From an uncultured bacterium (GTDB lineage: Bacteria; Muiribacteriota; Ozemobacteria; Ozemobacterales; Ozemobacteraceae), in NCBI GenBank assembly GCA_964428355.1, contig CAYRYU010000004.1, positions 131,261 to 174,441 on the forward strand: a stretch of 43,181 bases of DNA, in the 5' to 3' direction. Shown here one piece after another: positions 1 through 31,545 of this stretch (positions within the stretch are counted from its first letter, which is position 1; each line of letters starts with the position of its first letter). Under the pieces are notes generated by a model. It did not search any database. It was not told the DNA's origin and was given only the letters and a program-made list of their open reading frames with translations. Both the position numbers and the translations under genes were made by a program.

Positions 1-3000
1 GTTCGGGACGCTGAGTACCAGCTTGGTTCCGGCCCCTGTCGCCCCGCCCGTTAGTGCGAGGGCCTGCTTCCCGCTTCCCGGGAAGAGCCGGAAGAAACCG
101 TCTGAGGTGAGTTCAAGCTTCCAGGGGGTTCCCTTTGCATCCTTGCCGGATGAGAGCATTGCCTTCGTTCCGGCCGTGGTCTTTCCACCTTCCCCTGTCA
201 GGAAAAGCCGGGAATAGGAGTTGACCAGGAAGAACGTTTTCTTCGCGAACGGTCGTGCCCGCATCGTGGCCTGGAACTCCGGAGCCAGCTTCTCCTTGAT
301 GTCGGCGAAGTTTGCCTGGCAGGCATCCAGTTGGGACATCTGTTTCGAAAGGAGCTTGGACTTCTTGCCCACCTTTGTGGCAAGGAGGTTCCTGAGCTGC
401 TCAGACTTGTTCTTGAAAAGCGCTTTGATCGAGTTGACCATGTCCGACCACGAGAAGTCGCCCTCCCATTCGAACGGTTCGCCCATGATCCGGACCTTGA
501 CGTAGATGTGGATAGGCCTTTTCCCGATAAGGGATTTGAAGGACCCCGACAGTTCGCTGTCCTCGATCGCGAAGACATCCAATCCCGCGATTCCGTTGGC
601 CATCTTTTCCGCGATTGCCTTGATGCCGTCGGTGACCTCCTGGCCGGCTTCGACGATCTCCTCGGCGGCATGCAGCCCGGCGAGGGCAGTCTTGTAGGCC
701 GTGATCACGCCCCAGACCCTGGGATCGGCATCGACGGGAATCGAGTCGACGCATTCCTCAACCGCCTTGGCGTAGAGTTCGGCGCATTCCTTCGCGATAT
801 ACAAACCCGCGATCTCCAAGGCATACTTCGCCCGTTTGAAGATTCGCCACTTGGGGGTGTCCTTGAGCTTCTTCTTCTTCTCCTCGATCTTCTTTTCGAT
901 CTCTTCGACCTTTTCCCGGGCTTTCTCGGCGGACTGGAGAACCTTCTCCCGGTCGCGGAGGACGATCAGTCGCTGTTTGTCAATCTCCTTTTTGAGGTTC
1001 TCGACTTCCTTTTTCGCGTCTTCCAGCTCCTTGAGGGCATCGAGGAATTCCTGGTCGGGTTCCCAGTTCTTGATCCGGTTCGCGATCTCCTTGGTGAACC
1101 ATTTCTGGAAATCACCCTTGAGTTTCGCCGTGATCTGGAAATCCTTGGGGTTCAGGAGGTCGGCTTCTTTGGTTTTTCCTACGAAATCCGCTTGGAACAA
1201 ATCTCCAGCCTTCAGGCCGAACTCGATCTGGACCCCGTCGATGCTGATGGTGATCTTGATGGTGGGTTTCAACCCGAGGATGCTCGCCTTGAAACAGATG
1301 TAGAAATGCGGCATTTCCGAGAAGTTCGCGGCGATGTCGATCTTCGCCTCCTCGATCTTGAGGAGCGGTCCGAAGTCCTTCAGAAGGAATTCCCCGTAGA
1401 TTTTCAAACCCGACATATCCAGGAAGGAGTCGACCTTGGCGATCTCCTTCTTCAGGAGGATGAGGGTTCCCTTCAATCCCGCGCCGGGGCCCTGGACCTT
1501 CAGGTCGGGGTCGGTGGCCCCGGGAGTGACCAGCTTCACATGGAAATCCTTCAGCTGGAAAATCGGAAGCTTGTCCAGGTGCAGGAGTTTGAAGATGCTG
1601 TTTTCGGGGGAAGCCAGTTTCTCGAGAACCTCCTGGGCTTTCTTCCGCTTGTTCGCATCCTTTATCGTGTTGAGGAAAGACTGTTTGTCGGCCGCCTTCT
1701 GGGCGATCGCCCTGAATACGATCTCGGCGATTTCGATGGTGTTGAGGAGCGGGATCGTCGACATCTGGCTCGCGGTGAAATCCAGCAGGACTTCCTTGGG
1801 GAATCCCAGCGCGGCCGGTTCAAGTTTGGTTCCGAAAGCGAGTCCGTAGTCCTTCGAGCCGAACTTGGCCGAACCGGCGGCCTTCACGCCCACCGCCCCT
1901 TCGGCGTCGAGACTGAAGCCGAAGACGAGGTCCCGGACGGTGATTCCGGGAAGTCCGAAAATGTCCTTCCATTCACCCTCTAGCTTTCCGGTGACCCCGA
2001 GGCCCACTCCCGTCGCGGAGACGTCCGCAGAAAACTGGCCCACGAGAGTCAGATCGTTTCCACTCACGCTGAACAGGAAGCGGATCGCCATTCCGAGCGA
2101 GAGATCCAGGGAAGAGGTCATTTTCAGGAAGAACTCGGTTCCGATGCCCTGAGGCCGGATTGCCCCATGGAAAGGAAGTTTGGCCGGGAAGTTGAAGTTC
2201 GGGAGCTTCGCGGCAAGAGCGAAGGCCGGAGTCCCGCCCCCGAAGATCCCTTCGATGCTTCCGGCAATGATCATGGGGTCGGTGATTCCGGCTTTCTCCA
2301 TTGCCGTCTTCACGCTGCCGGATGTGTCTCCCGGGTTGAAGACCGCGATCAGGTTGATCCCCTTGAGGATGTGGATCTGGAAGGTCGGGGTAGTGGAGAT
2401 GTCAGCCAGGAACTCCTGGAGGTTAACCGGGAGGTCGCTCAGCTTCGAATCGAACCCGCCCTTGGCAAGGACGAGGTAGGCCTGCGGAAACACGAGCGGG
2501 AGCGCGAGCCTGGGGATGAGCTTTTTCAAATCCAGCTGCGGGAACTTCAGCAGGAAAGCGATGTCGCCCGTTTTTCCCCTGGGGATGTACATCATGAAGG
2601 ATGTTTCGAGGTTCTTTTTTGTCCAGACGAGGGTACCCCCGAAGCCGTTCATCGAGGCCCAGACATCCTTCACGCCAAGTTCGCTGATCCCGGGAATCTC
2701 CTTGACTCCGGGAATGTCGGAGAACTTCAGGGTCGATGGCATGCGGAGAGTGAAATCGTCGATGGCGCCCTTGTACATCGTGAATTCACCCGCCACCTCG
2801 AAAGTGGGTCCGCCCTTGATCGTGGCTTTTGTCCTCAAACCCATGAGAAGCAGGGTGGAGGAGGAAACCTTCGATGTTTCACCGTAGAAGGAGATTTCCT
2901 TCAAATCGATGAAATCGAGACCTCCTGCGTTTTTCCAGGAGTTCTCCTTGACCATGGTGGAAGCGAAGCTCTTCTTCCAGGAGTTTCCTGTCTCTTTCGT

Positions 3001-3918: not shown

Positions 3919-4199
3919 CGAAATTCACAAATAATTTTTCCCCTCACTCCTCGAACCGTGCAAATCATTCCTGGGAGCCCTTCCTGGGTCAGACGGAGCT
4001 TGAAATGGTTTCCGGCCCCGGCATTTTGGTAAAAAGGCTTCTTGGGAAGGTGAGTTCCGAGAGAGGGAAATGAAACTCCCCAAGGAATCCTACCACAGGC
4101 CGGGACCATCGTAGCATGGTACAAGAAAGAGTATCCACACCTTTTTCAGTCACATCCCGAGCTCGAATCGAGGGGTTTTTCGATGGCCTGGATTCCGGG

Positions 4200-4240
4200 A
4201 AAAAAAGAACCCCTCACAAAGGGGGGAGGGGTTCTTTCCC
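4200..4240 (-). terminator. rho-independent terminator ending the cyclase-PLD operon
   Basis: perfect 9-bp stem GAACCCCTC/GAGGGGTTC (4207-4215/4227-4235) with 11-nt loop; minus-strand reading is followed by a 7-T run (plus-strand A-run 4200-4206); 10 nt after PLD stop. Confidence 0.7.
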
Positions 4241-4249
4241 AATACGGCT

Positions 4250-6511
4250 TCAGAAGAGAGGTTTGAGCCACCCCATCTTGGAAATGAGCTTGATGAGCCA
4301 GAGCTTCTTGGCCCCCTGGACGTCGGCAGGCCCGAATTCAGGGGAATCCGCCGTGGCGAGATGGTACTCGACCGACTTCGCCATATCGGAGAAGATCTCC
4401 TTCCGCAGTTCCGACGCGAATTCATCGGATTTGATCATGGCCACAACCTCGGAATTCACCTTCTCGCTCAGGTAGTCGAAGTTGTAGGTTCCGACCAGAC
4501 CGACCTTTCCATCGAAAACGAAGTTCTTCGCATGGAGTTGGCCTTCGTTCACGCGAGCGAAAAGCCGGCAGGTTGGCATGTCCTTCAGGTAGGTCCGCCA
4601 GTCGCGAAGGAGCATCGCCTCGGTGGGGAAGCTGTCGGAGGTCTGGGGGCTGTTGGTGTGGATATAGATGGGGACGCCCCGCTTCGAAGCTCGCTTCAAA
4701 GCGGCTTGCGCCCTGGGAGTCAGAACGATGTACGGGTTCTGGATGATGATCTCTTTCCGGCTTCCGTCGATGAACCTGACGATGCTTTCGGTGATGTCGT
4801 TCCGGGGGCCTGACAAGGAATGCTTGTCGAGTATCTGGACCGGAGCGTCATAGGCGTTCGAAAACGGGTCGAAGGCTGGAAAACCAGTCATATGCCTGTA
4901 CTTTGTCAGTTCCTTGTTGTATCTGGTCACTCCGGGTTCGATGTCGTCGGGGACCTTTTTTGCGTCGAGGACTCCCTGGCCGTGGAGGTAGAGGTCCATG
5001 GAATAACCGGCGGCTTCCATCTCCCATCCGTAGGATTCGGTGCCTCCAAGGAACGCCTTTTTCACCTTGAAGGCTTTCAGGAGCTGGAACTCCTCGGTGA
5101 AGGCCGTCTCCATTTCCCGGGCCACTTCCTCGCTGTCGATCACTACATCGCAATCACGCCAGGCTTCAGGGTCGTCGATGGGATCGACCAGGTACTCGTT
5201 GGCGATGTTCCGTCCCCCAATGATGGCGAATCTTCGGTCGACTACGATGATCTTGTCGTGGTTGCTGGAAATCACCCTGCGAAGGTCGGTCAGCAGCAGG
5301 GCGATGTTGGTCTCCATCGGGTTGTAGATCTTGACCTCGACATTCCCCCGCCGTACCAGCTCCTGGAGGAAGTCCTGGGCCCAGAATCCCAGGCTGAACT
5401 TGTTGGACCCGCGGCAATCGATCATCAGACGGATCTTCACGCCCTCGTTTGCTTTCTTCAGGAGCAACCCGAGCAGGGAGGTTCCGAATACATCGTTATC
5501 GATGATGAAGTAGGTCATATCGATGGTGCTCTGGGCGTCGCTCAACAGCTTCCAGCGGGAGTACCAAGCCTCGTAATTCTTGTAGACCAACCTTACCCTG
5601 GCGTTGTCATCCGGGGGCCCGCTTGCGATGCGGGCGGCATACTGGTCGAAGATTTCCTCGGGGGGAGGTGTGAAAGGCGCTCCCAGGGCTTCATAATACA
5701 GTTCGAAATCCGCTTCGTCGTTCTGGGCCCTGAGGAAGGCGATCGATTTCGCGAGGTAGGTGGCCCACCGGACCATTTTGACGGGAGCCAGCAGCCAGGA
5801 GGTGTCCTTGTATTTCCTGTAGGCGGCATTCATTTCCTCGAACTTCTGGGAAAGGGATTTCTTCCATTTGGTCCGGTCTCCGAAGGAGCCCAGATACTTG
5901 ATCCGGAGGTTCGCATAGATTCCGAAACGTCCGGAGTTGGGGTCGGCTGCAATCTCCTTGTAGAGGGCCAGGGCCGAGGCCTGGTCGTTCCTGAGCCGTT
6001 CGTAGGCCTTCGCCAACTCGTATTGGATCTTGCTCTTGTCAGGACAGTTCGGATTCGCCTGGAGATAGGACTTGATCTGGATGAAGATCGAATCTGCATA
6101 ACTTCCCGCTCTTTCGCTCTTGAGGCAGTCGATCAGGGGCTGGATGTCGGGAGTGAACGTGGCGTTGTCGGAATAGGGGTCTGTCATCGGTTGGGCGGTG
6201 GTTAGCGGGGGAACGGTCAAAGATGAGGAAACGGCTCCGGAGGAGGTGGTTTCCGGAAGGGTAGAGGAAGCAGCACTCTTCGACGGATTCCCGGGAAGGG
6301 TGCCGACATAGGTGTCTTTTGCGACAGAATAAGCCTGACGCGCCTTTTCCACCTCGCCGGCCGGTTTCTGGGCGGTTACCGCCTCCTGGTAGGCTTTGTA
6401 CGCAGCAAGATACTTCTGGTAGGCGGAATCGGTCGTCTCTGCCATCGCCCCCGAAATGCAGAATGCGATCAGCAAAAGAACCAAAACCAGCTTTCTCCGG
6501 ATTCGATTCAT
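4250..6511 (-). CDS. secreted phospholipase D superfamily protein with two HKD motifs and N-terminal helical/TPR-like region
   Basis: HxKxxxxD motifs SNHDKIIVVDRR and LHAKNFVFDGK...GTYNFD; signal peptide MNRIRRKLVLVLLLIAFCISGAMA; start chosen at second ATG (6511, GGGGG 5 nt upstream) rather than ORF-track 6535. Confidence 0.85.
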   Translation of the reverse strand: MNRIRRKLVLVLLLIAFCISGAMAETTDSAYQKYLAAYKAYQEAVTAQKPAGEVEKARQAYSVAKDTYVGTLPGNPSKSAASSTLPETTSSGAVSSSLTVPPLTTAQPMTDPYSDNATFTPDIQPLIDCLKSERAGSYADSIFIQIKSYLQANPNCPDKSKIQYELAKAYERLRNDQASALALYKEIAADPNSGRFGIYANLRIKYLGSFGDRTKWKKSLSQKFEEMNAAYRKYKDTSWLLAPVKMVRWATYLAKSIAFLRAQNDEADFELYYEALGAPFTPPPEEIFDQYAARIASGPPDDNARVRLVYKNYEAWYSRWKLLSDAQSTIDMTYFIIDNDVFGTSLLGLLLKKANEGVKIRLMIDCRGSNKFSLGFWAQDFLQELVRRGNVEVKIYNPMETNIALLLTDLRRVISSNHDKIIVVDRRFAIIGGRNIANEYLVDPIDDPEAWRDCDVVIDSEEVAREMETAFTEEFQLLKAFKVKKAFLGGTESYGWEMEAAGYSMDLYLHGQGVLDAKKVPDDIEPGVTRYNKELTKYRHMTGFPAFDPFSNAYDAPVQILDKHSLSGPRNDITESIVRFIDGSRKEIIIQNPYIVLTPRAQAALKRASKRGVPIYIHTNSPQTSDSFPTEAMLLRDWRTYLKDMPTCRLFARVNEGQLHAKNFVFDGKVGLVGTYNFDYLSEKVNSEVVAMIKSDEFASELRKEIFSDMAKSVEYHLATADSPEFGPADVQGAKKLWLIKLISKMGWLKPLF

Positions 6512-6645
6512 AGAAACCCCCGACAGATCGGACATTTATCAAATTGTACTCACGGAAAGGGGAAGTGTCCAGCCCATGGGTATGGGACCATTGGAGGAGG
6601 GACGAAGAACCGGTTTCGAAAGAGGGGTGTGAAAACCTGGTCGGG

Positions 6646-9600
6646 TCAATCCCGAAATCGTTCGAGAATGACGAAAGCGGGGACGCGGATCTTTCCTCCG
6701 ACAAGGGGTTTCCGCTTCCATCGGGGGGAAAGAGATTTTTCCGTGAGTGGGCAGACCACAATTCCGGGCCCAGGGGCGGATTTCGTCGCCTTTTCCATCT
6801 CCGCCGAAAGGTTAACCGTTGGACCGGTGACCGTGAAGTCCTGGCGTTGACTCCCTCCTCCAAGGACTCCAAGGATGGTTCGGCCCGATCCGATTCCAAC
6901 ACCTATCCTTATCGGGAACTCACCTCTTCCCTCACGTTCCTCGTTGAACTTTGCGACTTCGGAGAGCATATTCCAGCCTGCCTGGGCGGCTCTCTCGGGT
7001 GCGGGGGGCCGCCCGTGAACAGGGAGGAAAACAGCCAGGATCGCGTCCCCGATGAACTTGTCGATGGTTCCGCCCTCACCTTCGATAACCGGTTCCATTC
7101 GAGTCAGGTACGCGTTGAGCATTCCCACGATCTCTTCGGGGGCTTTTTCCTCGGACATGGACGTGAAACCTCTGATGTCCGCCGTCAGGATCGTCGCATC
7201 GACCTTGGTCGCTTTCGGCTCCCCCCCCCTCGCGATCGCATCCATGGTCAGATCAGACAGGAAGCGGGACAAAAACTCCTTCTCGCGAAGCCCGTCGGCC
7301 ATCGAGTTGAAGGAGTTGCACAGATCTCCGATCTCATCTTCGGTCAAGGCGGGAAGCCGGGTGGTCTCCCCGCCTTCCAGGAGGTTGCCTACCCCTTCCT
7401 GAAGGGAACGGACCGGTCGGAGGAAAAAACGGGAGAAGATGAAAGCCATCAGGACAATTATTCCGACGGGATACAGAACGACTGCGTTCGAAAGTAAGGC
7501 CCCCCATGGTTTTCGGGTCCCCCGAGGATCGGGTCTTACCGAGAATGCGACGAACCCCCAATCTTTCAAGGCCCTGCCGAGAAAAATGTGGGGTCTTCCC
7601 CCGACGGTCAGTTTTCCCCGGATCTTCCCCCCTTTCATCGTAAGCCTTTTAAGAAGGCTCCGTATGCCGGGATGCGATTCAGCCCAGATCGGGAAGACGT
7701 TCGGGTTGTTGGTGAAGTAGGAGTTCATGAAGACGAGGGAAGGCTGCCCGTTTGCCAGAAAAGGTGATTCCAGGAGGGCCTTCCGCATTTCTGAAAACTC
7801 CGCCTGCCTTCTCGCGAAATTGGCCATAACGGCAAGAGGGATCTGGAAATCCTTGGAAAAAAACGTATGGAAGAAGGTCCATGTGTTTTCATGGAGGATC
7901 TGCCAGGAGTTGATCCGATCTTGGGAAAGCCATGTCTTGAGCAGTTGCATCGGATCGAACGATTGTTCGATGGTCTCGAAAACGAGGTCATCGGTAGCTT
8001 CCTCGCCGTGACCTGATTTCACTGGCCGGTCGGAATCTTTTCGGAACCTCAGACTTCGTCCAAGTTTTGCAAGGAACCGGGAAAAGAACCGGTCGGTTTT
8101 TTCAACCTGCTTTTCGTTTTCCTTCGTGGTGATGACCCTGATCGGAACCACGGGCTGGGAGGGAGGGATCAGGAAAAGCCTGTTGACATCGCCTGATGCC
8201 AGCTCGGGGATGATCTTATCCGTGAAACTTGCTGGTGGAAGCCCTTTCACCCAAACCGGATCGGATAAAACCTGCTTCAGAAGCGATACCCGGTCACTGA
8301 GACTTTTTTCCCTCACGTTCTCGAGGTTCTGGAGATCCGCCTCGAGAGAACGGAACTCCTCCATTACCGAAACATCCGAATCCCAGAGCATGCCGGAAAC
8401 CGATGTCCAGCCAAGGCCAAGGGTGGGTGCAATGCAGGTCAGGAGGCTTAGAAGAAGGAACTTGACCCCAATGGAGCTTTTTGGAGCCGGAAGCATTTCG
8501 ATCGGCTTCCCTTCACCGGGAGAATCTCCGGGAGGGATCCTCCCCGGTGGCGCAACCCCGGGGGATACGAATCCGGGGGCGGGGGAAACGGGCAGTGAGC
8601 CGGATGAAGCGGCCTCTTCAGGGGGACCCGCCTTGACACTTGGTGCTCCCTTGGTACGGCCTTCAGGAGGTTCGGGGCAACTGGTAGGGGGTGAAAGCAG
8701 TTTCAGGATACCGGAAACCGAAAGGAAGAGAGATAGGAATCCGATCGCGACAGCCATGGGGGAGCGTGCGAGGCGGAAAATGGGCGGGGAAGGATCCCAG
8801 AGTGAGATGACTCTGTCCGGGTCTCCGGGCAGACCGCTGAACGCGGCCCCACCTTCCTCCGTGAAGATCTCCCCACTGGTTTCCTGGTCCAACGCCCGTT
8901 TAAAGGCTTCCCCCAAGGACCCTGGAAATCCGGGCGGAAGAGCCGGCTTTTTCCGGGTTCCCACCCAGGAATTGAACGAAAGCTGGGTCTTGTTCTTCGA
9001 AAGCGACTCCATGAACCAGTCGCCTCTTTGAAAGAAAGCCAGGGGAACCAGGATGGCGAAGGCACCACCCCTGACAAGGGGGATCTTTTGGACAGGGAAG
9101 CTCTTGTCCCGGGTCAAGTATGAAACCGGGGCGCTGACGGGGGAGCCAGGGAAAAGGGTGCCTATCAACACCATGTAATGAGTCTTTCGGAATTGGGCTT
9201 GGACGATGGAGATCGTCGATACCCCGAAGGCGAAGGGGAACGATTTGCCGAAGAGGCTTTCCAAAGCCACCGAAAAGCGGTCCCAATTCAAGTCTGACCG
9301 GGGAATCAGGAAGGAAGACCAATCCAGGATGAGGCTCAAGCATCGGGTTTCCGTCGCGTCGAGCCCCTCCTTGTCGAGGCATCCTCCTTCCCTATCCTTC
9401 AGCATGAATTGGACGTCGCTTCCAAAGGTTTCGAGAGCCCGCTTTCGGATCGTCCCCGCGGTTTCGGGGAGCAGTTCAGCGATGTCCCTGACGGTGTCGA
9501 GAAGCGTCTCGTGGGCCAGAGATTCGGGGCTCATGCGTGCTTGGAGAAGAGGAAGCAGATACTCCCGCTCCTGGGCGACGTTGGTCACTGCCACCTGCGA

Positions 9601-9705
9601 CAAGTCAGCTTCCATGGAATCCAAAAGGGACCACTCGAGCAAAAAGACGGTGATCAGAAAAACGGGAATGGCGACTTTCAGAGTCCTTTCAGTTGCCCGT
9701 GCCAT
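6646..9705 (-). CDS. membrane-bound class III adenylate/guanylate cyclase with large extracytoplasmic sensor region, Pro-rich linker, HAMP domain and C-terminal cyclase homology domain
   Basis: CHD motifs ATILTADIRGFT, KFIGDAILAVF, RIGVGIGSGRTILGVLGGG...FTVTGPTVNLSAEME; HAMP-like LTEDEIGDLCNSFNSMADGLRE; multiple TM helices; start at ATG 9705 (MARATERTLKV, GAGG 5 nt upstream), 17-nt overlap with upstream cyclase. Confidence 0.85.
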   Translation of the reverse strand: MARATERTLKVAIPVFLITVFLLEWSLLDSMEADLSQVAVTNVAQEREYLLPLLQARMSPESLAHETLLDTVRDIAELLPETAGTIRKRALETFGSDVQFMLKDREGGCLDKEGLDATETRCLSLILDWSSFLIPRSDLNWDRFSVALESLFGKSFPFAFGVSTISIVQAQFRKTHYMVLIGTLFPGSPVSAPVSYLTRDKSFPVQKIPLVRGGAFAILVPLAFFQRGDWFMESLSKNKTQLSFNSWVGTRKKPALPPGFPGSLGEAFKRALDQETSGEIFTEEGGAAFSGLPGDPDRVISLWDPSPPIFRLARSPMAVAIGFLSLFLSVSGILKLLSPPTSCPEPPEGRTKGAPSVKAGPPEEAASSGSLPVSPAPGFVSPGVAPPGRIPPGDSPGEGKPIEMLPAPKSSIGVKFLLLSLLTCIAPTLGLGWTSVSGMLWDSDVSVMEEFRSLEADLQNLENVREKSLSDRVSLLKQVLSDPVWVKGLPPASFTDKIIPELASGDVNRLFLIPPSQPVVPIRVITTKENEKQVEKTDRFFSRFLAKLGRSLRFRKDSDRPVKSGHGEEATDDLVFETIEQSFDPMQLLKTWLSQDRINSWQILHENTWTFFHTFFSKDFQIPLAVMANFARRQAEFSEMRKALLESPFLANGQPSLVFMNSYFTNNPNVFPIWAESHPGIRSLLKRLTMKGGKIRGKLTVGGRPHIFLGRALKDWGFVAFSVRPDPRGTRKPWGALLSNAVVLYPVGIIVLMAFIFSRFFLRPVRSLQEGVGNLLEGGETTRLPALTEDEIGDLCNSFNSMADGLREKEFLSRFLSDLTMDAIARGGEPKATKVDATILTADIRGFTSMSEEKAPEEIVGMLNAYLTRMEPVIEGEGGTIDKFIGDAILAVFLPVHGRPPAPERAAQAGWNMLSEVAKFNEEREGRGEFPIRIGVGIGSGRTILGVLGGGSQRQDFTVTGPTVNLSAEMEKATKSAPGPGIVVCPLTEKSLSPRWKRKPLVGGKIRVPAFVILERFRD

Positions 9706-12508
9706 TTTCCTCTTCCAATGTGAAGATCCTGACCGGTCCGGTTCGGCCTCTGATAGCCCTGAGCGGGAGATCCCGTACGATGATCCCCGGGAACTTGGGC
9801 TCGGGAACATCGATCGTTCCGAGGACCGAGGGAAGGTCGACCGTGCCCGCGAGCTTTTCGAGGCGGGCGGCCAGGTTCACGATATCGCCGATCACGGTGA
9901 AATCCATGCGCTTCTTTTCCGACCCGATATGACCTGCCACCACTGGCCCGATTCCGAACCCGATTCCATAAGCTGGAGCAGGCAAACCCAATTGGATTCT
10001 GTTTTCTCTCCACATCCTGAGGGATTCCCTCAATTCCAACGCCGCCCTTGATATCCCGGCCTCCAGGGCCGTGCTCCCCTCTCCCTGGAAAACCGCCATC
10101 ACTGCGTCTCCCAGCATCTTGTCGATCTCCCCGCCACAACGCCCGATGGCTTCCTGGCAGCGGAGGTGGAAATCGTTCATCAGCGAAACCGCCAACTCCG
10201 GTGACAACCCCTGTTCCACGTTCCGAAAATCCCTGAGGCCCGCGAAAAGGATCCCCAGTCTTTCCCGGGAGACGCTTGCCAACGGCCTCGATGAAGCCTG
10301 CCTTATGAGCTCGGGGCGGAGGAAGGATGCCATCCGCGCTTTTTGCCGAAGGCCAACGAGCATCCAGTTGAAACTGGCCCCCAGAATTCCCAGTTCGTCC
10401 TGGCTCCTGACCGGAACTCCCGCTTCATAGTCGCCTGCGTGGACCTTGCCGATTCCGCATGTCAACTCGAGCAATGGGGTCAGGAGGAACTTCCGGAGCA
10501 ACTTTCCTGCACCAATTGCCAACGAAAGCGAGGAGAAAAAGAGAATCCCGAGGAATGGAATCGCATGCTGGGAGAAGCCCTGGACCCTTCCGGCCGGCAT
10601 GACGGCGGCAGCGACCGCGTCCATTCCACCAAGGGGCCTGCAAAGGACCAGGTATTTTTCGCCCTTGTGATCGAACTGCACGCACAGAGGTTGGCGCGTG
10701 GCTTCGGTAACATCGAGGATTCCCCGGACGAAGGGATGACGGGGCATTGCCTTGGTCCCACCCTGGAACATGGCCCGGATGAACAAGCCGTTCCTTGGGG
10801 GAAGTGACCCGAGCTTCCGTTTTATCGATTCCGCGGCGAGGGTTTCGAAGGAGAATACGAGGCAGGCTAGCGACTTGACCGAACCCTGACTGTCCCGAAC
10901 CAGGCCCGGGAAAACGACCCGTTTCTGGAACCCGGTTTCCAATCTGTGGAGTCGGTTGAGGAAAGAGTCCGCCCACCCCGCGAAACTCATCAACCCCGAT
11001 TGATGGAACTGGATTGGGGTTTCCAGAGCTTTTTCCGCCGCACCGACATCGAAGGTGAGGCTCGCGAGGGTTTGGCGAAGGACGGAGAAAGCGATGGAAA
11101 TGGTGGCCGAAAACTGTTTTCGTGGAAGGGTCGTGTCCAGGATGAATTTCCCGTCCCGGAAAATCAGCGATTGTCCGATCAGGCCGATCGGTTTGAAATG
11201 GCCCAGAACCCTGTCCATATCGCTGGGAGTCCGGACGTGGGCGAGGGAAAATGAGCCAAGGATCTTCGCCAGTTCGACCTCGACTTCTGCGAAGATGTCT
11301 GAAAGCGACTTTTCGATGCTTCCGATTTCCCGTTCGAGCCGGTTTTCCACTTCCTGACGGAGCGAAAGGTGGAGCTTGAGGGACTGCCGAAGGGTGCTGG
11401 TGGACATTGCTATCAGGGGAAACCCCGCGAGCAGTACCGTTCCGAGACTGAATTTCCCAACGAGGGAAAGCTTGGAAAAAAAACCTACCCCACCAGGGGC
11501 AGCCAGGAGCAACCCTACAGCCAGGACGAACAACCAAAGGGACCCTTGCAGACCCGTCAGCAGGGCTGGAGGGTCGAGAAATCCCCGGCCGGTGCGCTTG
11601 ATTCCGACGGTGAGGACGAGGTCCGGGTCGGTCTGCCAGAATCGCGAAAGGAAAACCGAGTCGGTGGTTTCGTATACGGGACGGCCCTTGCCTAGGTTCT
11701 CCAGAAGTCCGTGCTGGAGTCCGGGGGATATCTCGCCACCTTTGACTCCTTCTCCGGTCGACTGCCAGAACGCACCCAGGGAAACCCCCGAACCCTTACC
11801 GGCCCGGAGGAAACGTTCAACTTCCCACCCTTTTCTGGCGCGAAAAAGGGGTACCAGCGAAACCAGGGAGCCGACCGGGGGAGCTTTCCCAAAACGGAAA
11901 AGGGTCAGCGAGAGGAGATAGAGCCTGCCATCGAACAGGACTTCCATCGGACCCCGCCGGCAACCTAGCAGCCATTTCGGGTCAACCAGGTCCCCCATCC
12001 GGGTTCGGATAAGTGCCTGGGCTGCATAGCGTTCGCCTGGAGAGGGTTTTCGGGAACCGGAAAGGAAAGCCTGAAACCCCTTCCAGGCCCGAATTCCCTC
12101 CTGGGGAGGTGATTCACCTCGGGGGAACACCAGATTTCCCGCGCTGTCGAACCAGAAAAACCTGGAAGTCCGGGGGAAACGCTGCATCAACGATTTCTGG
12201 AGCTGTCCTGCGGAACCCGGGTCTAGTCTTCTTCTTCTTAGGAAATTTCTCGCGGAATCTTCCCATTTCCGGAAGGAGGTCCGTATGATCTCGACCCGGT
12301 CGGACCCGCGGATCGTTTCAGTCATGAAATACTTCGCGTTGTCGATGTCTTCGGCAGCGCATTTCCCCTCGAAAACCCGCACGATGTCCACGAGAAGCCC
12401 GTTCAGAAGCCAGGCGGGGACGACAACTCCCAGAGCGAAAAACAGAAACCCCAGGAGGCGGGAAAAGGAGGCCGGGGCGGTAGAGACCTTTTCAGTCTCC
12501 CCGGACAT
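9689..12508 (-). CDS. membrane-bound class III adenylate/guanylate cyclase with periplasmic sensor, HAMP domain and cyclase homology domain (paralog of downstream cyclase)
   Basis: CHD motifs ILFAGLRDFRNVE, KMLGDAVMAVF, GIGFGIGPVVAGHIGSEKKRMDFTVIGDIVNLAARLE; HAMP LGILGASFNWMLVGLRQK; TM helices; 17-nt overlap with upstream TPR gene. Confidence 0.85.
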   Translation of the reverse strand: MSGETEKVSTAPASFSRLLGFLFFALGVVVPAWLLNGLLVDIVRVFEGKCAAEDIDNAKYFMTETIRGSDRVEIIRTSFRKWEDSARNFLRRRRLDPGSAGQLQKSLMQRFPRTSRFFWFDSAGNLVFPRGESPPQEGIRAWKGFQAFLSGSRKPSPGERYAAQALIRTRMGDLVDPKWLLGCRRGPMEVLFDGRLYLLSLTLFRFGKAPPVGSLVSLVPLFRARKGWEVERFLRAGKGSGVSLGAFWQSTGEGVKGGEISPGLQHGLLENLGKGRPVYETTDSVFLSRFWQTDPDLVLTVGIKRTGRGFLDPPALLTGLQGSLWLFVLAVGLLLAAPGGVGFFSKLSLVGKFSLGTVLLAGFPLIAMSTSTLRQSLKLHLSLRQEVENRLEREIGSIEKSLSDIFAEVEVELAKILGSFSLAHVRTPSDMDRVLGHFKPIGLIGQSLIFRDGKFILDTTLPRKQFSATISIAFSVLRQTLASLTFDVGAAEKALETPIQFHQSGLMSFAGWADSFLNRLHRLETGFQKRVVFPGLVRDSQGSVKSLACLVFSFETLAAESIKRKLGSLPPRNGLFIRAMFQGGTKAMPRHPFVRGILDVTEATRQPLCVQFDHKGEKYLVLCRPLGGMDAVAAAVMPAGRVQGFSQHAIPFLGILFFSSLSLAIGAGKLLRKFLLTPLLELTCGIGKVHAGDYEAGVPVRSQDELGILGASFNWMLVGLRQKARMASFLRPELIRQASSRPLASVSRERLGILFAGLRDFRNVEQGLSPELAVSLMNDFHLRCQEAIGRCGGEIDKMLGDAVMAVFQGEGSTALEAGISRAALELRESLRMWRENRIQLGLPAPAYGIGFGIGPVVAGHIGSEKKRMDFTVIGDIVNLAARLEKLAGTVDLPSVLGTIDVPEPKFPGIIVRDLPLRAIRGRTGPVRIFTLEEENGTGN

Positions 12509-14045
12509 CGCGGTTGACCGACGGCCTTTTCAAGAGGGGTTCCACCCGCCCCAGAAGTTTGACGAAAGCCCTCAGCAGAAACCGCAGTCCTGACAGGAGA
12601 GGACCTCCAGGGGAAAGACGGGCGAGGCTGGGGCCCACACGTTCGTAAAGTTTGATCGAAGCCCGTCCTGAGGCACAACGACGGAGGAATTCATCCCGGA
12701 ACCTTCTGAGAATGATGGTTTCGGGACTTTGGGGACCGAACACCCGCGAAGCCACATAGCATGTGAATTGTTCTTCTTCCTTGACCTTCCCCGGTTGGTT
12801 CTTTCCGGGAAGGTTGGGGATGTACTCCGGTTCAAGGACGTTGATCTTTTCCAGGACCTTTGCGGCTTTCAGCGGGTTGTTTGCCAGGATGTGGCACCTG
12901 TAGGCTCCCTTGAGGGCGATCATGTTCTGAGGATCGAAGTTCAGAACCTCGTGGAAGTGGTCGAGGGCCTTCTTCGTGACAAGTACCGCTCCGTGTGATC
13001 CGGGGATTTTGGAATCGGCTTCTTCAAGGAGTTCCTGCCCCTTCATCAGCTCGTCCTCGATTCTGAGGCCCTGGATCCGGGCTTTTAGCCGCGCGGCTTC
13101 ACCGTCGTTGGGGACATTTTTCAACAGGAGATCGAGGCAGGAGATTCCGTCCTTGAACTTCTTCAGGGGAATCAGTACCTGGGCTTTCAGAAGGAGGAGT
13201 TTCTTATGGGTCGGGGCAACTTCCAGCCCAAGATTGATGGCTTTCAGGGACTTCTCGAACCTCTCCTCTGCGAAAAGGCGCTTGCCCTGCGCCAGGGAGT
13301 TCTGGGCACGCTTTTCGTTCATTCCCGCCCAGTAGGCTTGCGATTCCCCCAGGACCTTGCGGTAATCGACTATGTCATCCGCTTTCCCCAGCTCCGAAAG
13401 ACAGTGGATAACCCCCCTGATTGCAGGCTGGTTCATCGGTTCGAAGTTAAGCACTTCCCGATAGATGGCCAGGACCTTCTCGATCTGGGATTGGAACTTC
13501 TTTCGGAAGGCTTCGCTGCCGCTCTCATCTCCGGGATTCGATTCTTCGAACTCCTTGGTCGTCAGGCCAAGAACCTGGTTCCATTGCGCTTTGGCTTTTT
13601 CGAGCCGGAAATCGATCAGCTCCGACCTGAGCGCGTGGAAGCTCGAGTTGTCCGCCATGAAGAGAGGAAACTCGAAATAGAGTTTCTTGAAAATCTGGTA
13701 GGTTTCGGAGAGGTTCCCCATCGCCTTTCGGAGATGCCCCAGCAGGAGCAGATACTTGGGGGTTTCACCCGCCAGGTTTTTATACTCGTCCAGCCGTTTC
13801 TGGGCGATGTCGAAGTTCCCCAATAATATATCGTCTTCGATGATTTGATCGATATCGCCGAATCCTGCGGCGGGAAGGGGTTGGTCCTCGTCGACTCCCG
13901 TTTGCGGCGGGGGCCCGTTTCCCCCTTCCGGGCCGGGGGGGGCTTCGCCCTCCGGGGAAACAGCGGGCGGCGGGTTCTCCCCGGCCGGGGGTGGAACCTC
14001 CGGTGTTTTTGAGGGTTTTTCTTCAGCCATTTGGAGTGGTCCCAT
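12492..14045 (-). CDS. TPR-repeat protein with Pro-rich N-terminus and Cys-containing C-terminal module; first gene of cyclase operon
   Basis: Pro/Gly-rich N-term (PEVPPPAGENPPPAVSPEGEAPPGPEGG), repeated helical TPR-like segments, C-term FTCYVASRVFG...RRCASGRASIKLYERVGP. Confidence 0.7.
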   Translation of the reverse strand: MGPLQMAEEKPSKTPEVPPPAGENPPPAVSPEGEAPPGPEGGNGPPPQTGVDEDQPLPAAGFGDIDQIIEDDILLGNFDIAQKRLDEYKNLAGETPKYLLLLGHLRKAMGNLSETYQIFKKLYFEFPLFMADNSSFHALRSELIDFRLEKAKAQWNQVLGLTTKEFEESNPGDESGSEAFRKKFQSQIEKVLAIYREVLNFEPMNQPAIRGVIHCLSELGKADDIVDYRKVLGESQAYWAGMNEKRAQNSLAQGKRLFAEERFEKSLKAINLGLEVAPTHKKLLLLKAQVLIPLKKFKDGISCLDLLLKNVPNDGEAARLKARIQGLRIEDELMKGQELLEEADSKIPGSHGAVLVTKKALDHFHEVLNFDPQNMIALKGAYRCHILANNPLKAAKVLEKINVLEPEYIPNLPGKNQPGKVKEEEQFTCYVASRVFGPQSPETIILRRFRDEFLRRCASGRASIKLYERVGPSLARLSPGGPLLSGLRFLLRAFVKLLGRVEPLLKRPSVNRDVRGD

Positions 14046-14214
14046 GATACCGGATTAAATGATGTGGGGCAAGAATCTCGGACGGGTATCTCCCGGGAAC
14101 CTTGCGGGAAGAATGGAATTTGACCTTCAGGGAAACTTCTGTAACCATTTCATTTCGGGACCAAAGAAATGGATTGGAGGTCCGGTTTTCATTCATACCG
14201 CAAGGAGACTGATT

Positions 14215-15297
14215 ATGAGGATGCCGCGATTGTCCCTGTTGTTCCTGATGCTTCTCATACTGCCTGGATATGCGGGTCCCCCCCGGAATATCGTTCTGGT
14301 TTCCGAGGATGCCCGGGCTCACATCCGACCTGAACAGCTCGCACCGCTGGTGGCATTCGTGGATGAGTCAGGGAAGCCCCAGGATGAAATGTTCGACGGT
14401 TTCCTTTTCTTTGCTCTCAAGGCGGGCTCCGGAAGGGTGTTGGCCCCCAGCGGGGAGCTTGGTGTTTCCAGTGCAAACGAGGAGGACTTCAACTGGTATC
14501 TCGACGCCCTGTTCAAGGGACGAAAGCCCATCGAAATGCTTGACAAGGCAGTCGATTCGCTGCCTTCCGGACTGAAAGCAAGGAAGTCCGTCATCATTTC
14601 CATCCCTTACCCCGAATGGAAAACCCTCTTCCTTTTTCGCGTAAAATGGGTTGCAGGCTTCATCAAGGAAGCGGTCAGGAGGTTCAAGGCTGCGGAGTTC
14701 CGAAACCTTGACCTCGCAGGGTTCTACTGGCTGGAGGAATCCATTGCCCCGACGATGGGAGAGGGCGTTATAAAGGTCGCCGCGGAACTGACCCATGCCC
14801 TTGGATTGTCACTGTATTGGATTCCCTACTTCGGAGCGGATTACGGAATGGGGATCGCCAAACTGGTGGGCTTCGACAAGGTGATGGTCCAGCCCAACTA
14901 TGCCTACCGAAACGTCAACGAGAAACGGTTCATCGAAACCGAACAGAAAAGAAAAGCCCATGGCTTTTCGGTCGAGTTTGAGCTGGCCATGTACACTCGC
15001 AACCGTCCGAAACAGTCTTCCGACTGGCGATTCAGTTTTATCCAGTACTGTTACGCCGCACTGAACAACGGGTGGTTGAAGCTTCCCTTTGCCAGCTTCT
15101 ACAGCGGGGAGGCGTTCCACCTCATGTCCGCCAGGCCCGAGACCTACCCGTACTACCGGTTGGTGTACAAGCTACTGAAAAGGAGCCTGAAGAAGGCTGA
15201 CGTCGATGCCGTCAAAGCCTCTTTCACCGCGTCCACTGCACCCGCGAACTCCCTCTTGAAATCCCTGCGCCGCGAAAACCCGGGGACACACGACTAG
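14215..15297 (+). CDS. secreted hypothetical protein (signal peptide; unassigned conserved-domain-like region, possibly polysaccharide/TIM-barrel-like)
   Basis: ATG 14215 with AAGGAG 7 nt upstream; MRMPRLSLLFLMLLILPGYAG signal peptide; divergent from cyclase operon. Confidence 0.6.
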   Translation: MRMPRLSLLFLMLLILPGYAGPPRNIVLVSEDARAHIRPEQLAPLVAFVDESGKPQDEMFDGFLFFALKAGSGRVLAPSGELGVSSANEEDFNWYLDALFKGRKPIEMLDKAVDSLPSGLKARKSVIISIPYPEWKTLFLFRVKWVAGFIKEAVRRFKAAEFRNLDLAGFYWLEESIAPTMGEGVIKVAAELTHALGLSLYWIPYFGADYGMGIAKLVGFDKVMVQPNYAYRNVNEKRFIETEQKRKAHGFSVEFELAMYTRNRPKQSSDWRFSFIQYCYAALNNGWLKLPFASFYSGEAFHLMSARPETYPYYRLVYKLLKRSLKKADVDAVKASFTASTAPANSLLKSLRRENPGTHD

Positions 15298-17571: not shown

Positions 17572-17601
17572 GTGGAGTCAACTAGAACCAGGAGGGCATA
17601 G

Positions 17602-19047
17602 ATGAAACAATACGAATTCCTGAAAGGGGTATCCTTGTTTTCCGCCCTTTCCGACGACGAGCTGAAATCCTTTGCCGACAAGGCCGAAAACATCCAGTTC
17701 GTCCGTGATGCCATGATCTGCAAAGAGGGTCAGAAAGCTGATTCCATGTTCGTCATCAAATCCGGGATCGTCCAGATTTTTTGCGACGACGGAAAGGGAG
17801 GACGAAAGGTACTCACCCACCTGAAGCTTGGGGATTATTTCGGGGAAATGGCGCTCCTTACGGAAGAGCCCAGATCGGCCAGTGCTCTTGCCCTGGCCGA
17901 AACCGATGTGATCAAGATCAAGAAGGAGGACTTCCACAATGTCCTGAAAACCTCTCCGGAAGTCTCTCTCAGAATCATCCGGACCCTGTGCGACCGGTTG
18001 GCCAAGTCGAACATCGGCACACCGACCGAGAAGACCTACAACGTCTACGCGGTCATGGGTCCGGACACATCCTCGGGCAAGAGCATGTTCGCGCGCAACC
18101 TGGCCTTCGCGATGAGCAAGATCCTCGGAAAGGATGTCCTGGTCTACGATCCCAACCTGCGCGACGACAGGGTGGCCAAGTATCTTGGGGTCGAGCAGAG
18201 GTCCCGCATCATCGACGAGCTCGTCGACCGTGAGAAGATAACGGACATCAAGAAGTTCACGGTGAGGGCGCCATGCGGTCTCTTGACGATCGTCCCGCAG
18301 GAGAACGGTTTCACCGATCTCCGTCTGAAGGAGTTCCATACGTTTTCGATCATGAAGACGATCATGGACAGCTTCGAATACATCGTGGTCGACTCCAGCT
18401 CGATGTTCACCAAGGTCACGAAGGAGATCGTCCAGAGCGTTGACAAGATCCTCTACCTGATGTCGAGCAAGAATGTCTCCGTCGAGGGCCTCATCGACCA
18501 TTTCGAGGAGACCCGGCGTGGTTGGAAGGTCGATCCCAGCAAGGTTTTTTACGGAGTCAACCATATGACCGACGATCCCTCCCAGGAGGGAAAGATCACG
18601 GAAAAGGCCCGGTCCTTCATCAGGTTCGAGATGCCTTTCGAGAAGAAACTCCAGGGCCACCGGGACCCCGACACCAAGGTCCTGATCGAACGGGAACCAA
18701 ACAACCCCATCTCCGTCGTTGCCCGCGAACAGGCTGAAAAGGTTCTCTTCGACCAGGAGTTCGTGATCTTTCTCCCCACCTTCGCGGGAGATCCTTCCAA
18801 AGCCGACCATTCGAGACGGTGGGCGGACACCGGGGTCCAGGAGCTATCGGCGAAGCTTCGCAATGTCAGCCTGAAGGGGCCGGTAACCCACAACGGCGCT
18901 CCATGCCACCAGATATTCGGGAACGCCTCGAAGTGGTCCCTCAACCAGCAGGTCATCGCCGTTGTCGATTTCGCGAACAAGTTCAAGCAGGAGTTCCATC
19001 TCGAGAAGCTCACCTTCTCCCTCAATGGGCAGGAAAGCGTGGTCTGA
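17602..19047 (+). CDS. fusion protein: N-terminal cyclic-nucleotide-binding (CAP effector-type) domain + ParA/MinD/CpaE-like P-loop ATPase domain with deviant Walker A
   Basis: cNMP-binding signature LKLGDYFGEMALLTEEPRSASALA; downstream YAVMGPDTSSGKSMFARNLAFA (deviant Walker A of SIMIBI-class ATPases); strong RBS. Confidence 0.8.
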   Translation: MKQYEFLKGVSLFSALSDDELKSFADKAENIQFVRDAMICKEGQKADSMFVIKSGIVQIFCDDGKGGRKVLTHLKLGDYFGEMALLTEEPRSASALALAETDVIKIKKEDFHNVLKTSPEVSLRIIRTLCDRLAKSNIGTPTEKTYNVYAVMGPDTSSGKSMFARNLAFAMSKILGKDVLVYDPNLRDDRVAKYLGVEQRSRIIDELVDREKITDIKKFTVRAPCGLLTIVPQENGFTDLRLKEFHTFSIMKTIMDSFEYIVVDSSSMFTKVTKEIVQSVDKILYLMSSKNVSVEGLIDHFEETRRGWKVDPSKVFYGVNHMTDDPSQEGKITEKARSFIRFEMPFEKKLQGHRDPDTKVLIEREPNNPISVVAREQAEKVLFDQEFVIFLPTFAGDPSKADHSRRWADTGVQELSAKLRNVSLKGPVTHNGAPCHQIFGNASKWSLNQQVIAVVDFANKFKQEFHLEKLTFSLNGQESVV

Positions 19048-30552: not shown

Positions 30553-31545
30553 ATGAAGCGGGGGTATTTTTTCCTCATCCTTTTCTTTTTCACAGTCGCC
30601 CTGATGGGTGAGAATTGTCAGGCGAATGACCCGCCCCGGGTTTTTTCCCTGCAATTCGGACAGGCCAGGGGAAATGGTCAGGTCCGTTACAAGATATCCC
30701 ATGGATCCTCTGGAGTTTCGGAAAACCCGGGTTCTGGCCCAGGCTTTTTGTGGGTCGCGCCTTCAAATCAGGAGACTCCCACCCAGGTGACTCTATTTTT
30801 TCCTGCCCTGAAACCGCCCTTCGAGAGCTCTTCGAGTTTCCTGATCACAGTGGAAACCACCTCTGAAGAAACTTTCGAAGGTTTCGATCAGCCCCGGACC
30901 GGCCCCTACTGGCTGACCTTCCGGAAGAAGGACGCGGATGGTTCGGAAGAAATGGAGAGAGCATCTCCGTTGGGAGGAACGATGCGTTTGAGCCGAATCC
31001 GGAGGTCTTTTCTTCTTGCGGGAGCTTCTTTTCAAGCCCCGGAGTTCGTTCCAAAGATCTCGATTTTCTTCCCTTCCTCCACGAGACTTTTCGGGATTGA
31101 ACTGCGCATCTGTGGCGGGTTCAGGCTGAAGCAGGAGAACGAGCGAAAGATGCTGAGATCCCTTTTCCGTCACATCCTGCGGCGCATGCCCCTTCCCTTC
31201 GAGGAAGCCCTTTTCCTGGATTGGGCTCGCGGGGAGGATTTATTGCTGAATCCCGCCGAGATAGCGCTTCACCTCGTACGGATGGAGGAGTTCCGGGGGA
31301 AGTTCTTCAGTTCGGTCGGGATCCGTCGGGGATTGGCTTCCCTGTGGTTCAGGATTTTTGGGGTCCGCATTTCCCCGGGAAGATTGGAGCATCTTTGCAG
31401 AATTGTCAGGCGGGAGGGGTTTGACCAGGGGATCGAGGAGATGTTCGAGCAAAACGTTGCCGAGCTCTGGGGAAGGTATGGATATCCGGGCTCTTCTGAA
31501 GCTCCCCTGATCGAGATCCTACCGGAGGCCGGCAATGGGAAGTGA
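30553..31545 (+). CDS. secreted hypothetical protein, co-transcribed with HAMP-PP2C sensor phosphatase
   Basis: signal peptide MKRGYFFLILFFFTVALMGENCQA; 11-nt overlap with downstream gene. Confidence 0.6.
   Translation: MKRGYFFLILFFFTVALMGENCQANDPPRVFSLQFGQARGNGQVRYKISHGSSGVSENPGSGPGFLWVAPSNQETPTQVTLFFPALKPPFESSSSFLITVETTSEETFEGFDQPRTGPYWLTFRKKDADGSEEMERASPLGGTMRLSRIRRSFLLAGASFQAPEFVPKISIFFPSSTRLFGIELRICGGFRLKQENERKMLRSLFRHILRRMPLPFEEALFLDWARGEDLLLNPAEIALHLVRMEEFRGKFFSSVGIRRGLASLWFRIFGVRISPGRLEHLCRIVRREGFDQGIEEMFEQNVAELWGRYGYPGSSEAPLIEILPEAGNGK

Follow-up and report, generated by a model that had tools for sequence, protein, structure and literature searches.

Two adjacent membrane cyclases of a Riflebacteria genome with complementary catalytic residues, predicted to act as a heterodimer

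We analyzed a 43,181-nt stretch of DNA from an uncultured bacterium of the Ozemobacteraceae (contig CAYRYU010000004.1), referred to here as the window, and studied one locus in it, positions 4250-14045 on the minus strand. The locus codes for a tetratricopeptide repeat (TPR) protein, two membrane-bound class III nucleotidyl cyclases that we call Cyc1 and Cyc2, and a phospholipase D (PLD)-superfamily protein. The full six-residue catalytic hexad is found in neither cyclase homology domain (CHD) alone; the complete set is present only across Cyc1 and Cyc2. Because each protein lacks a different essential catalytic residue, the two most likely work only as a heterodimer. The likely assembly is a membrane-bound class IIIb adenylyl cyclase, an obligate heterodimer with Cyc1 and Cyc2 as its subunits.

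Catalytic residues of Cyc1 and Cyc2

Both CHDs match solved class III cyclases in the PDB (OaPAC, CyaC, Cya2, and CyaB) with E values of 1e-18 to 1e-24. Against Pfam Guanylate_cyc (PF00211), with a cut-off of 21.9 bits, Cyc1 scores 43.3 bits and Cyc2 scores 56.2 bits. In each protein, a HAMP domain lies directly after the fourth transmembrane (TM) helix and before the cyclase domain. A preliminary description of this DNA had read both genes as membrane sensors with HAMP-linked class III cyclase domains, and the Pfam HAMP and Guanylate_cyc matches and predicted TM helices agree with it. The same description took the two proteins for independent synthases of cyclic nucleotide monophosphates (cNMPs). 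This part does not hold, since one essential catalytic residue is missing from each of Cyc1 and Cyc2, and each protein has the one that the other lacks.

The catalytic hexad of Cyc1 is G757-K797-D801-T871-N878-R882 (GKDTNR). Its segment 'ILFAGLRDF' aligns to 'VFFSDIVSF' of OaPAC, which places Gly757 at the first metal-binding Asp. In the alignment to solved cyclases, 'IDKMLGD' and 'DFTVIGDIVNLAARLE' retain the Lys, the second Asp, the Thr, the Asn, and the Arg. We considered whether an acidic residue three positions past G757 ('FAGLRDF') could compensate for the loss and rejected this idea, as the position varies among D, E, K, N, and A in orthologues. The hexad of Cyc2 is D843-K883-D887-T958-N965-E969 (DKDTNE). 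Here, 'ILTADIRGFT' and 'IDKFIGD' retain both Asp residues and the Lys. When 'DFTVTGPTVNLSAEME' is aligned to 'DFTAIGPSVNIAARLQ' of CyaC, Glu969 falls at the transition-state Arg ('VNLSAEME' versus 'VNIAARLQ'). The class IIIb Lys/Thr pair is present in both proteins, as K797/T871 in Cyc1 and K883/T958 in Cyc2, and aligns with K1057/T1139 of CyaC. Since Lys/Thr is the class IIIb signature for ATP, cAMP is the predicted product of the heterodimer. The preliminary description had held that the product could not be told from sequence; with a Lys/Thr pair indicating ATP, it is not wholly undeterminable.

Class III CHDs dimerize head to tail. The Asp pair of an active site comes from one chain, and the Lys, the Thr/Asp, the Asn, and the Arg come from the other, as established for mammalian C1/C2 and for Rv1625c (PMC4821796). 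According to the account of Guo et al. (2001) given in the same article, the D300A and R376A mutants of Rv1625c are inactive singly and complement each other when combined. In a heterodimer of Cyc1 and Cyc2, D843 and D887 of Cyc2 would meet K797, T871, N878, and R882 of Cyc1 to form one complete ATP-type site. The reciprocal site would bring together G757 of Cyc1 and E969 of Cyc2 and would be doubly crippled. In either homodimer, an essential residue would be missing from both sites. The 17-nt overlap of the two genes could couple the translation of the subunits and aid the formation of a 1:1 heterodimer. Signals from up to four different periplasmic regions might then reach the one catalytic site by way of two unlike HAMP domains paired with each other. 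We infer all four elements of this model, namely heterodimerization, the inactivity of the homodimers, the cAMP product, and signal integration, from the sequences.

Conservation of the pair and its single-chain relatives

An exhaustive HMMER search for Cyc1 orthologues gave 42 representatives, most of them full length. A word-indexed search with full-length Cyc1 returned generic CHD matches only, as CHD words swamped the candidates. The orthologues are 22-37% identical to Cyc1, and all named ones are from Riflebacteria. The hexad G-K-[D/E]-T-N-R is present in every one of the 42 representatives. Among 38 aligned sequences of the Cyc1 family, where mean column identity is 33%, G757, K797, T871, N878, and R882 are invariant. 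A metagenome scan with the Cyc1 family alignment, run on patterns that were generic CHD motifs, gave 80 loci, all of unrelated HAMP cyclases, and these nearest non-family proteins served as a control. The canonical DKDTNR was found in 78 of the 82 CHDs at these loci.

We then compared gene order at nine loci: the window, L006, and L096-L102, with contig look-ups for six Cyc1 orthologues and one Cyc2 orthologue. A Cyc2-type gene lies directly after the Cyc1-type gene in all nine. The Cyc2-type genes are 33-38% identical to Cyc2 of the window over most of their length; for the one in L006, the match within the locus is a weak N-terminal one alone. In the other pairs, the genes overlap by 4, 11, 8, 4, and 8 nt, and by 74 nt as called in L102, or are separated by gaps of 43 and ~130 nt. 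A programmed frameshift that would fuse Cyc1 and Cyc2 was considered and rejected, since the orthologous junctions (overlaps of 4, 8, 11, and 17 nt or short gaps) have no consistent frame relation. The genes flanking the cyclase pair differ at every locus, and apart from the PLD gene or the pair, the window showed no synteny to other Riflebacteria loci. One metagenome-assembled genome (MAG) carries two pairs (L006 and L100). In Candidatus Ozemobacter sibiricus, a third cyclase gene lies directly after the pair in a convergent orientation (L097, 15760..18006, minus strand); its 748-aa product has a canonical DKDTNR.

The catalytic residues of the Cyc2-type partners were compared in eight proteins, a count that includes the window and excludes L006. 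All eight keep both Asp residues, and seven have lost the Arg, with E, A, F, A, Q, A, and H in its place. The corresponding hexads are DKDTNE, DKDANA, DKDTNF, DKDTSA, DKDTSQ, DKDTLA, and DKDTKH, and L096 has the canonical DKDTNR. Further Cyc2-type representatives carry DKDTNQ, DKDTNA, and DKDTNG. The variability of the residues at the lost Arg fits a relaxed constraint on a dead site. These substitutions, together with the invariant residues of Cyc1, indicate that the complementary catalytic pattern is under selection.

Another way to read Cyc1 is as a dead pseudoenzyme that, as a receptor or scaffold, influences the activity of Cyc2 or of other cyclases and gives no catalytic residues. The first metal-binding Asp is indeed gone from every Cyc1-type protein, and the L096 partner with its full hexad could act alone. 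However, K797, T871, N878, and R882 are invariant over 38 sequences at 22-37% identity, which would be unexpected for residues without a catalytic role. In the window and six other pairs, it is the partner that has lost the Arg that Cyc1 keeps, and fused relatives of the pair divide the residues likewise between two CHDs. We therefore regard a purely noncatalytic Cyc1 as unlikely.

The fused relatives came from the same Cyc1 HMMER search. They form at least 78 Riflebacteria clusters of proteins of 1600-2400 aa (about 2000 aa), with two modules per chain, each consisting of four TM helices, a HAMP domain, and a CHD. Each representative (P0176, P0180-P0283) stands for a 50%-identity cluster, and all named ones are from Riflebacteria. 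In 76 of the 78 fusions, the first CHD retains both Asp residues and lacks the Asn and/or the Arg, as in 'LDFTVLGEPMKHCADLE'. In the same 76 proteins, the second CHD lacks the first Asp (with G, A, Q, T, S, M, or V in its place) and retains the Lys, the Thr/Ser, the Asn, and the Arg. The module order in these 76 proteins is the C1-then-C2 layout of mammalian adenylyl cyclases. P0209 is reversed, with HKDTNR followed by DKDTNG, the same order as that of the genes in the window. P0176 has two canonical CHDs; it resembles a linked homodimer and is a possible intermediate. The fused proteins suggest that two unlike CHD modules of this type cooperate in Riflebacteria.

Several points weigh against an obligate heterodimer of Cyc1 and Cyc2. 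L096, which holds the closest orthologous pair, has a fully canonical Cyc2-type partner. Its lineage could also form an active homodimer, and the asymmetry is thus not absolute on the Cyc2 side. Some residual activity of a Cyc2 homodimer is possible, as the Lys, the Thr, and the Asn are retained. At L006, the CHD of the Cyc2-type gene falls beyond the locus fetched. We know of no characterized precedent for a natural heterodimeric HAMP four-helix bundle. Finally, mean CHD identities between groups do not tell whether a single ancestral asymmetry event underlies both the split pair and the fused family.

Operon, phospholipase D gene, and sensor regions

The features of the locus are listed in Table 1. 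Open reading frame (ORF) calls place the TPR, Cyc1, Cyc2, and PLD genes on the minus strand and bear out the tight codirectional packing given in the preliminary description; the two 17-nt overlaps (TPR/Cyc1 and Cyc1/Cyc2) and the 134-nt gap between Cyc2 and PLD (6512..6645) proved exact on remeasurement. Both overlaps have the shape ATG-N11-TGA. The overlaps at 12492..12508 and 9689..9705 are alike in layout and in sequence, ATGtccggggagacTGAaaagg and ATGgcacgggcaacTGAaagga. That between Cyc1 and Cyc2 is out of frame, leaving two separate ORFs, and is consistent with translational coupling. The Cyc2 ATG at 9705 is preceded by GGAAGAGG; the mechanical ORF reaches 9810. The strong terminator described after the PLD gene is there: a G+C-rich stem of 9-10 bp followed by a U-run, with a folding energy of -24 kcal/mol (z = -3.4). 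None of 200 shuffled sequences folded as well. When the Cyc2-PLD gap was folded, no stable structure was found (z = +1.5), and there is no terminator between the two genes. An internal promoter or terminator ahead of the PLD gene had been named as evidence against a four-gene unit; of the two, the gap contains a promoter-like site and no terminator. Cotranscription of all four genes in this one genome is possible. A divergent gene for a DUF4855 protein (14059..15297, plus strand) flanks the operon, and its listed ATG is 13 nt from the start of the TPR gene. The real start is probably near 14215, because a signal-peptide-like segment begins at Met53/Met55. This would leave a divergent promoter region of ~165 nt, in which there is a sigma70-like match at 14072..14044 on the minus strand.

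The PLD protein has the signal-peptide-like N terminus and the intact HKD motifs expected of it. These are HDKIIVVD at residue 418 and HAKNFVFD at residue 660, two HxKx4D motifs, and Pfam PLDc_2 matches in two stretches (E = 8.8e-35). An AlphaFold2 model with a mean predicted local distance difference test score (pLDDT) of 84.9 has a signal-anchor helix, a helical domain, and a bilobed two-HKD core. A PDB sequence search with the protein gave no match. By Foldseek, the nearest solved folds are PssA, PLD1/2, PLD3, and Streptomyces PLD, with E values of ~1e-15. In its two HxKx4D motifs and bilobed fold, the protein is like PLD-superfamily phospholipid enzymes. It differs from ClsB/ClsC, PssA, and Streptomyces PLD in its signal peptide and in the helical domain of ~270 aa at its N terminus. 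The best NCBIfam matches are cardiolipin synthase models, and all are far below cut-offs (TIGR04265, 108.7 versus 290; ClsB NF008427, 96.5 versus 281). The protein is a predicted cell-envelope phosphatidyl transferase or hydrolase of the PLD superfamily; hydrolase, transferase, and nuclease are indistinguishable from sequence.

The arrangement of the locus can be read differently from a heterodimeric cyclase with genome-specific neighbors. In that reading, the four genes form one operon, each cyclase is active on its own and regulated by signals, and the cNMP they make controls the secreted PLD, with lipid remodeling or exo-lipolysis as the output. All genes are codirectional, with the 17-nt overlaps and the 134-nt gap, and a terminator-like structure is absent from the gap and strong after PLD. 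PLD-superfamily genes are also found loosely near the pairs in L006 (5.3 kb) and L097 (7.3 kb). We compared the PLD loci that had at least ~6.5 kb of upstream sequence (L001/L013, L002, L004, L006, L007, L008, L010, L012, L094, and L095). None of these 10 has a codirectional cyclase gene upstream of PLD, including the loci of the closest PLDs, at 62%, 55%, 52%, and 50% identity. The genes upstream of the closest PLDs code for a creatininase, a metallo-beta-lactamase-fold protein, a UvrD helicase, and, past two short ORFs, an APP1-type phosphatase. From the other side, no PLD gene lies directly downstream of the cyclase pair at any of the four loci with a fully called gene there (L097-L100), and a partial ORF in L101 has no PLD match. 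Homologues of the PLD place the source organism in Candidatus Riflebacteria (Ozemobacteraceae). The ~750-aa PLD is a phylum-wide family in varied gene contexts, and at least one MAG has two copies (L001 and L003). The promoter-like site in the gap and the residue missing from each cyclase, which argues against two independent synthases, also count against this proposal. A cytoplasmic cNMP could reach the PLD via transcription only, because the PLD has a signal peptide. The cNMP-linked PLD output put forward in the preliminary description is thus improbable, with a cyclase-PLD adjacency that is not conserved in related genomes, and a cyclase-PLD module as a conserved system is not supported. 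The outcomes that this description had named as grounds for refuting it are largely those observed. Of the order TPR-Cyc1-Cyc2-PLD, the Cyc1-Cyc2 step alone is conserved. The TPR and PLD genes are genome-specific neighbors outside the conserved pair and may share its transcript.

The two PLD-superfamily genes near other cyclase pairs can be placed more exactly. In L006, a locus chosen for its PLD, a 750-aa PLD (9899..12241, plus strand) lies 5.3 kb from the pair and is divergent from it. In L097, the gene (1074..2654, minus strand) lies 7.3 kb upstream of the pair on the opposite strand and codes for 526 aa with two PLDc_2 domains. Their proximity may be due to chance or loose linkage; the loci are too few.

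The preliminary description had expected CHASE-type sensors in the cyclases; the predicted fold is dCache-like instead. Cyc1 and Cyc2 each have four predicted TM helices around two periplasmic regions of ~280-300 aa. A Pfam scan of 14 sensor regions, with E values up to 0.1, matched no sensor family. A word-indexed homologue search with the 14-sequence sensor-region alignment returned Cyc1 itself alone. We built an AlphaFold2 model of Cyc1 residues 1-644 with 13 orthologues (mean pLDDT, 82.8). In the model, each of the two regions has a long stalk helix and, after it, two alpha/beta lobes. The best PDB matches in Foldseek are the dCache ligand-binding domains of Tlp3, TlpA, Mlp37, PscC, and HK1S-Z16, with E values of 2.5e-5 to 1e-3 and a probability of 1.0, a target-normalized TM-score of only ~0.4, and no Pfam Cache match. 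On the basis of this model, the sensor regions of both cyclases are predicted to be dCache-like. Where Cyc2 carries a linker of ~75 aa between TM2 and TM3, Cyc1 has a mere 4-residue hairpin. Elsewhere in the window, a gene at 31535..34405 (plus strand) codes for a 956-aa HAMP protein with a SpoIIE/PP2C phosphatase domain and TM helices at aa 16, 304, 335, and 645. It has the same build of four TM helices and two periplasmic regions, which suggests that the sensor scaffold of the cyclases is reused with another output. A homologue of this phosphatase is encoded ~8 kb from the PLD gene in L001/L013.

Neither a TM helix nor a signal peptide is predicted for the TPR protein. Near its C terminus, aa 429-477 (12615..12761, minus strand; 'CYVASRVFG...LRRFRDEFL') match the CFI-box-CTERM model NF041770 with a score of 39.9 bits (E = 2.6e-10), just short of its cut-off of 40. 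No TPR/CFI-box gene was found upstream of the other pairs at the seven loci with a readable upstream flank. A gene at 17602..19047 (plus strand), 3.5 kb upstream of the operon, codes for a protein of 481 aa. It combines a cNMP-binding domain at the N terminus (E = 5.6e-23) with a ParA/MinD-like ATPase region, and it could be a cAMP receptor. A minus-strand ORF that overlaps the gene (17578..18810) has no Pfam match.

Cyclases near a cNMP-binding protein also call to mind a Pycsar-like or other cyclic-nucleotide antiphage module, with that protein as effector or the PLD in the role of a nuclease like DrmC. In PADLOC, the matches are weak and at the level of domains: the CHDs match PycC (55-62 bits), the PLD matches DrmC (49 bits), and the 17602..19047 protein matches Pycsar effectors (52-55 bits). 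However, these matches span shared folds only, and we rejected membership in Pycsar or DISARM on this ground. The cyclases are HAMP-linked sensors of 940-1020 aa with four TM helices, dCache-like regions, and a purine-type Lys/Thr pair. Across the phylum, the two cyclase genes recur as a conserved chromosomal cassette with varied neighbors. No effector gene lies next to them, and the PLD has a signal peptide. A role in defense is very improbable.

Table 1. Features of the cyclase locus, with nucleotide positions in the window and residue positions in each protein
Feature	Position (nt)	Residues (aa)	Strand	Details
TPR protein	12492..14045		-	517 aa; TPR repeats at aa 244-325; Pfam TPR_19, E = 8.3e-13
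Cyc1, C2-like (beta-like) cyclase subunit	9689..12508		-	939 aa
Cyc1 TM1		22-40		Predicted TM helix
Cyc1 periplasmic dCache-like region 1 (predicted)		41-325
Cyc1 TM2 and TM3		326-367		Predicted TM helices
Cyc1 periplasmic dCache-like region 2 (predicted)		368-648
Cyc1 TM4		649-667		Predicted TM helix
Cyc1 HAMP	10343..10501	670-722	-	Pfam, E = 2e-6
Cyc1 cyclase domain	9830..10279	744-893	-	Pfam Guanylate_cyc, E = 4.1e-11
Cyc1 Gly757 codon	10238..10240		-	First metal-binding Asp position; Gly in all 9 paired loci
Cyc1 stop/Cyc2 start overlap	9689..9705		-	17 nt, ATGgcacgggcaacTGA
Cyc2, C1-like (alpha-like) cyclase subunit	6646..9705		-	1019 aa from ATG at 9705
Cyc2 TM1		11-29		Predicted TM helix
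Cyc2 periplasmic region 1		30-311
Cyc2 TM2		312-337		Predicted TM helix
Cyc2 cytoplasmic linker, TM2-TM3	8473..8694	338-411	-	Pro/Gly/Ser-rich, low complexity; ~75 aa
Cyc2 TM3		412-434		Predicted TM helix
Cyc2 periplasmic region 2		435-737
Cyc2 TM4		738-756		Predicted TM helix
Cyc2 HAMP	7282..7437	757-808	-	Pfam, E = 2.2e-10
Cyc2 cyclase domain	6766..7215	831-980	-	Pfam Guanylate_cyc, E = 4.4e-15
Cyc2 Glu969 codon	6799..6801		-	Transition-state Arg position
sigma70-like promoter match	6543..6571		-	TGGACA-17-TACAAT, 10/12; consensus match only; within Cyc2-PLD gap
Two-HKD PLD-superfamily protein	4250..6511		-	753 aa; alternative ATG at 6535
PLD signal peptide		1-24		MNRIRRKLVLVLLLIAFCISGAMA, followed by E; from hydropathy and AXA site only
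PLD all-helical domain		~27-295		~270 aa
PLD bilobed catalytic region		300-753		HKD motifs at aa 418 and 660
Intrinsic-terminator-like hairpin and U-run	4196..4241		-	3' of PLD stop codon

Comparison with known cyclases

Bacterial class III adenylyl cyclases are described as homodimers with two active sites, and the origin of the C1/C2 pseudoheterodimer is placed in early eukaryotes, through duplication and fusion (PMC4821796, PMC9552081). We found no natural bacterial heterodimeric or tandem-CHD class III cyclase in the literature searched, the coverage of which is incomplete and is not proof. We are inclined to think that Riflebacteria evolved a mammalian-type asymmetric cyclase independently of eukaryotes, in split and single-chain forms, with up to four dCache-like regions per catalytic site. 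If this is true, asymmetric cyclase architecture is not specific to eukaryotes, and an enzyme of this kind might detect the coincidence or the ratio of several ligands. Proteins that look like intermediates are still present in the phylum, namely single-CHD cyclases with a canonical hexad, the fused P0176, and fusions of either order, and would then record how asymmetry followed duplication. The pair is possibly a tractable bacterial model for a question that is open for mammalian cyclases, namely how one catalytic site is placed under the joint control of two unlike membrane or receptor domains. A search for ligands would be realistic, because the receptor domains resemble well-understood dCache domains. 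In annotation, the number of Guanylate_cyc domains in a genome should be read with caution, since it overstates how many independent cyclases there are.

The closest parallel to the catalytic division is the mammalian transmembrane adenylyl cyclase (tmAC). There too, the Asp pair is on one CHD (C1, corresponding to Cyc2), and the Lys, the Asp/Thr, the Asn, and the Arg are on the other (C2, corresponding to Cyc1). One active and one degenerate site, as predicted for the pair, is also the state of tmACs, in which, as in the pair, every CHD comes after a membrane domain of its own. In the fused relatives from Riflebacteria, the order is membrane-C1-membrane-C2 in a single chain, as in tmACs, whereas the pair in the window consists of two polypeptides, with the C2-like subunit encoded first. 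The window pair has the class IIIb Lys/Thr instead of the class IIIa Lys/Asp of tmACs. Where tmACs have a six-TM bundle, each half of the pair combines four TM helices with a HAMP domain and two large dCache-like regions in the periplasm, and features for G proteins or forskolin are absent. An origin of the asymmetry independent of that in mammalian tmACs is probable.

Soluble guanylyl cyclase (sGC) alpha/beta, an obligate heterodimer, is likewise made of two gene products, with the metal-binding Asp residues on one subunit and the specificity residues, the Asn, and the Arg on the other. sGC is eukaryotic, soluble, regulated by haem and nitric oxide, and GTP-specific (Glu/Cys), whereas the window pair is bacterial, membrane-bound, dCache/HAMP-linked, and predicted to be ATP-specific. 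Among mycobacterial cyclases, the Rv3645 type has a HAMP domain directly before a class IIIb CHD, as in Cyc1 and Cyc2, and Rv1318c-Rv1320c are tandem cyclase genes. The mycobacterial enzymes have a full hexad each and are two-site homodimers with six-TM anchors and no large periplasmic domains. In Rv1625c, also a bacterial membrane cyclase, the engineered D300A and R376A proteins complement each other as a heterodimer in the account given in PMC4821796; in the Riflebacteria pair, the predicted complementation would be natural and fixed. The pair departs from the characterized bacterial members, in which one chain bears the whole hexad. By its sequence, the pair is best placed with the bacterial HAMP-linked class IIIb cyclases, while its apparent catalytic division resembles that of C1/C2 in tmACs and of alpha/beta in sGC.

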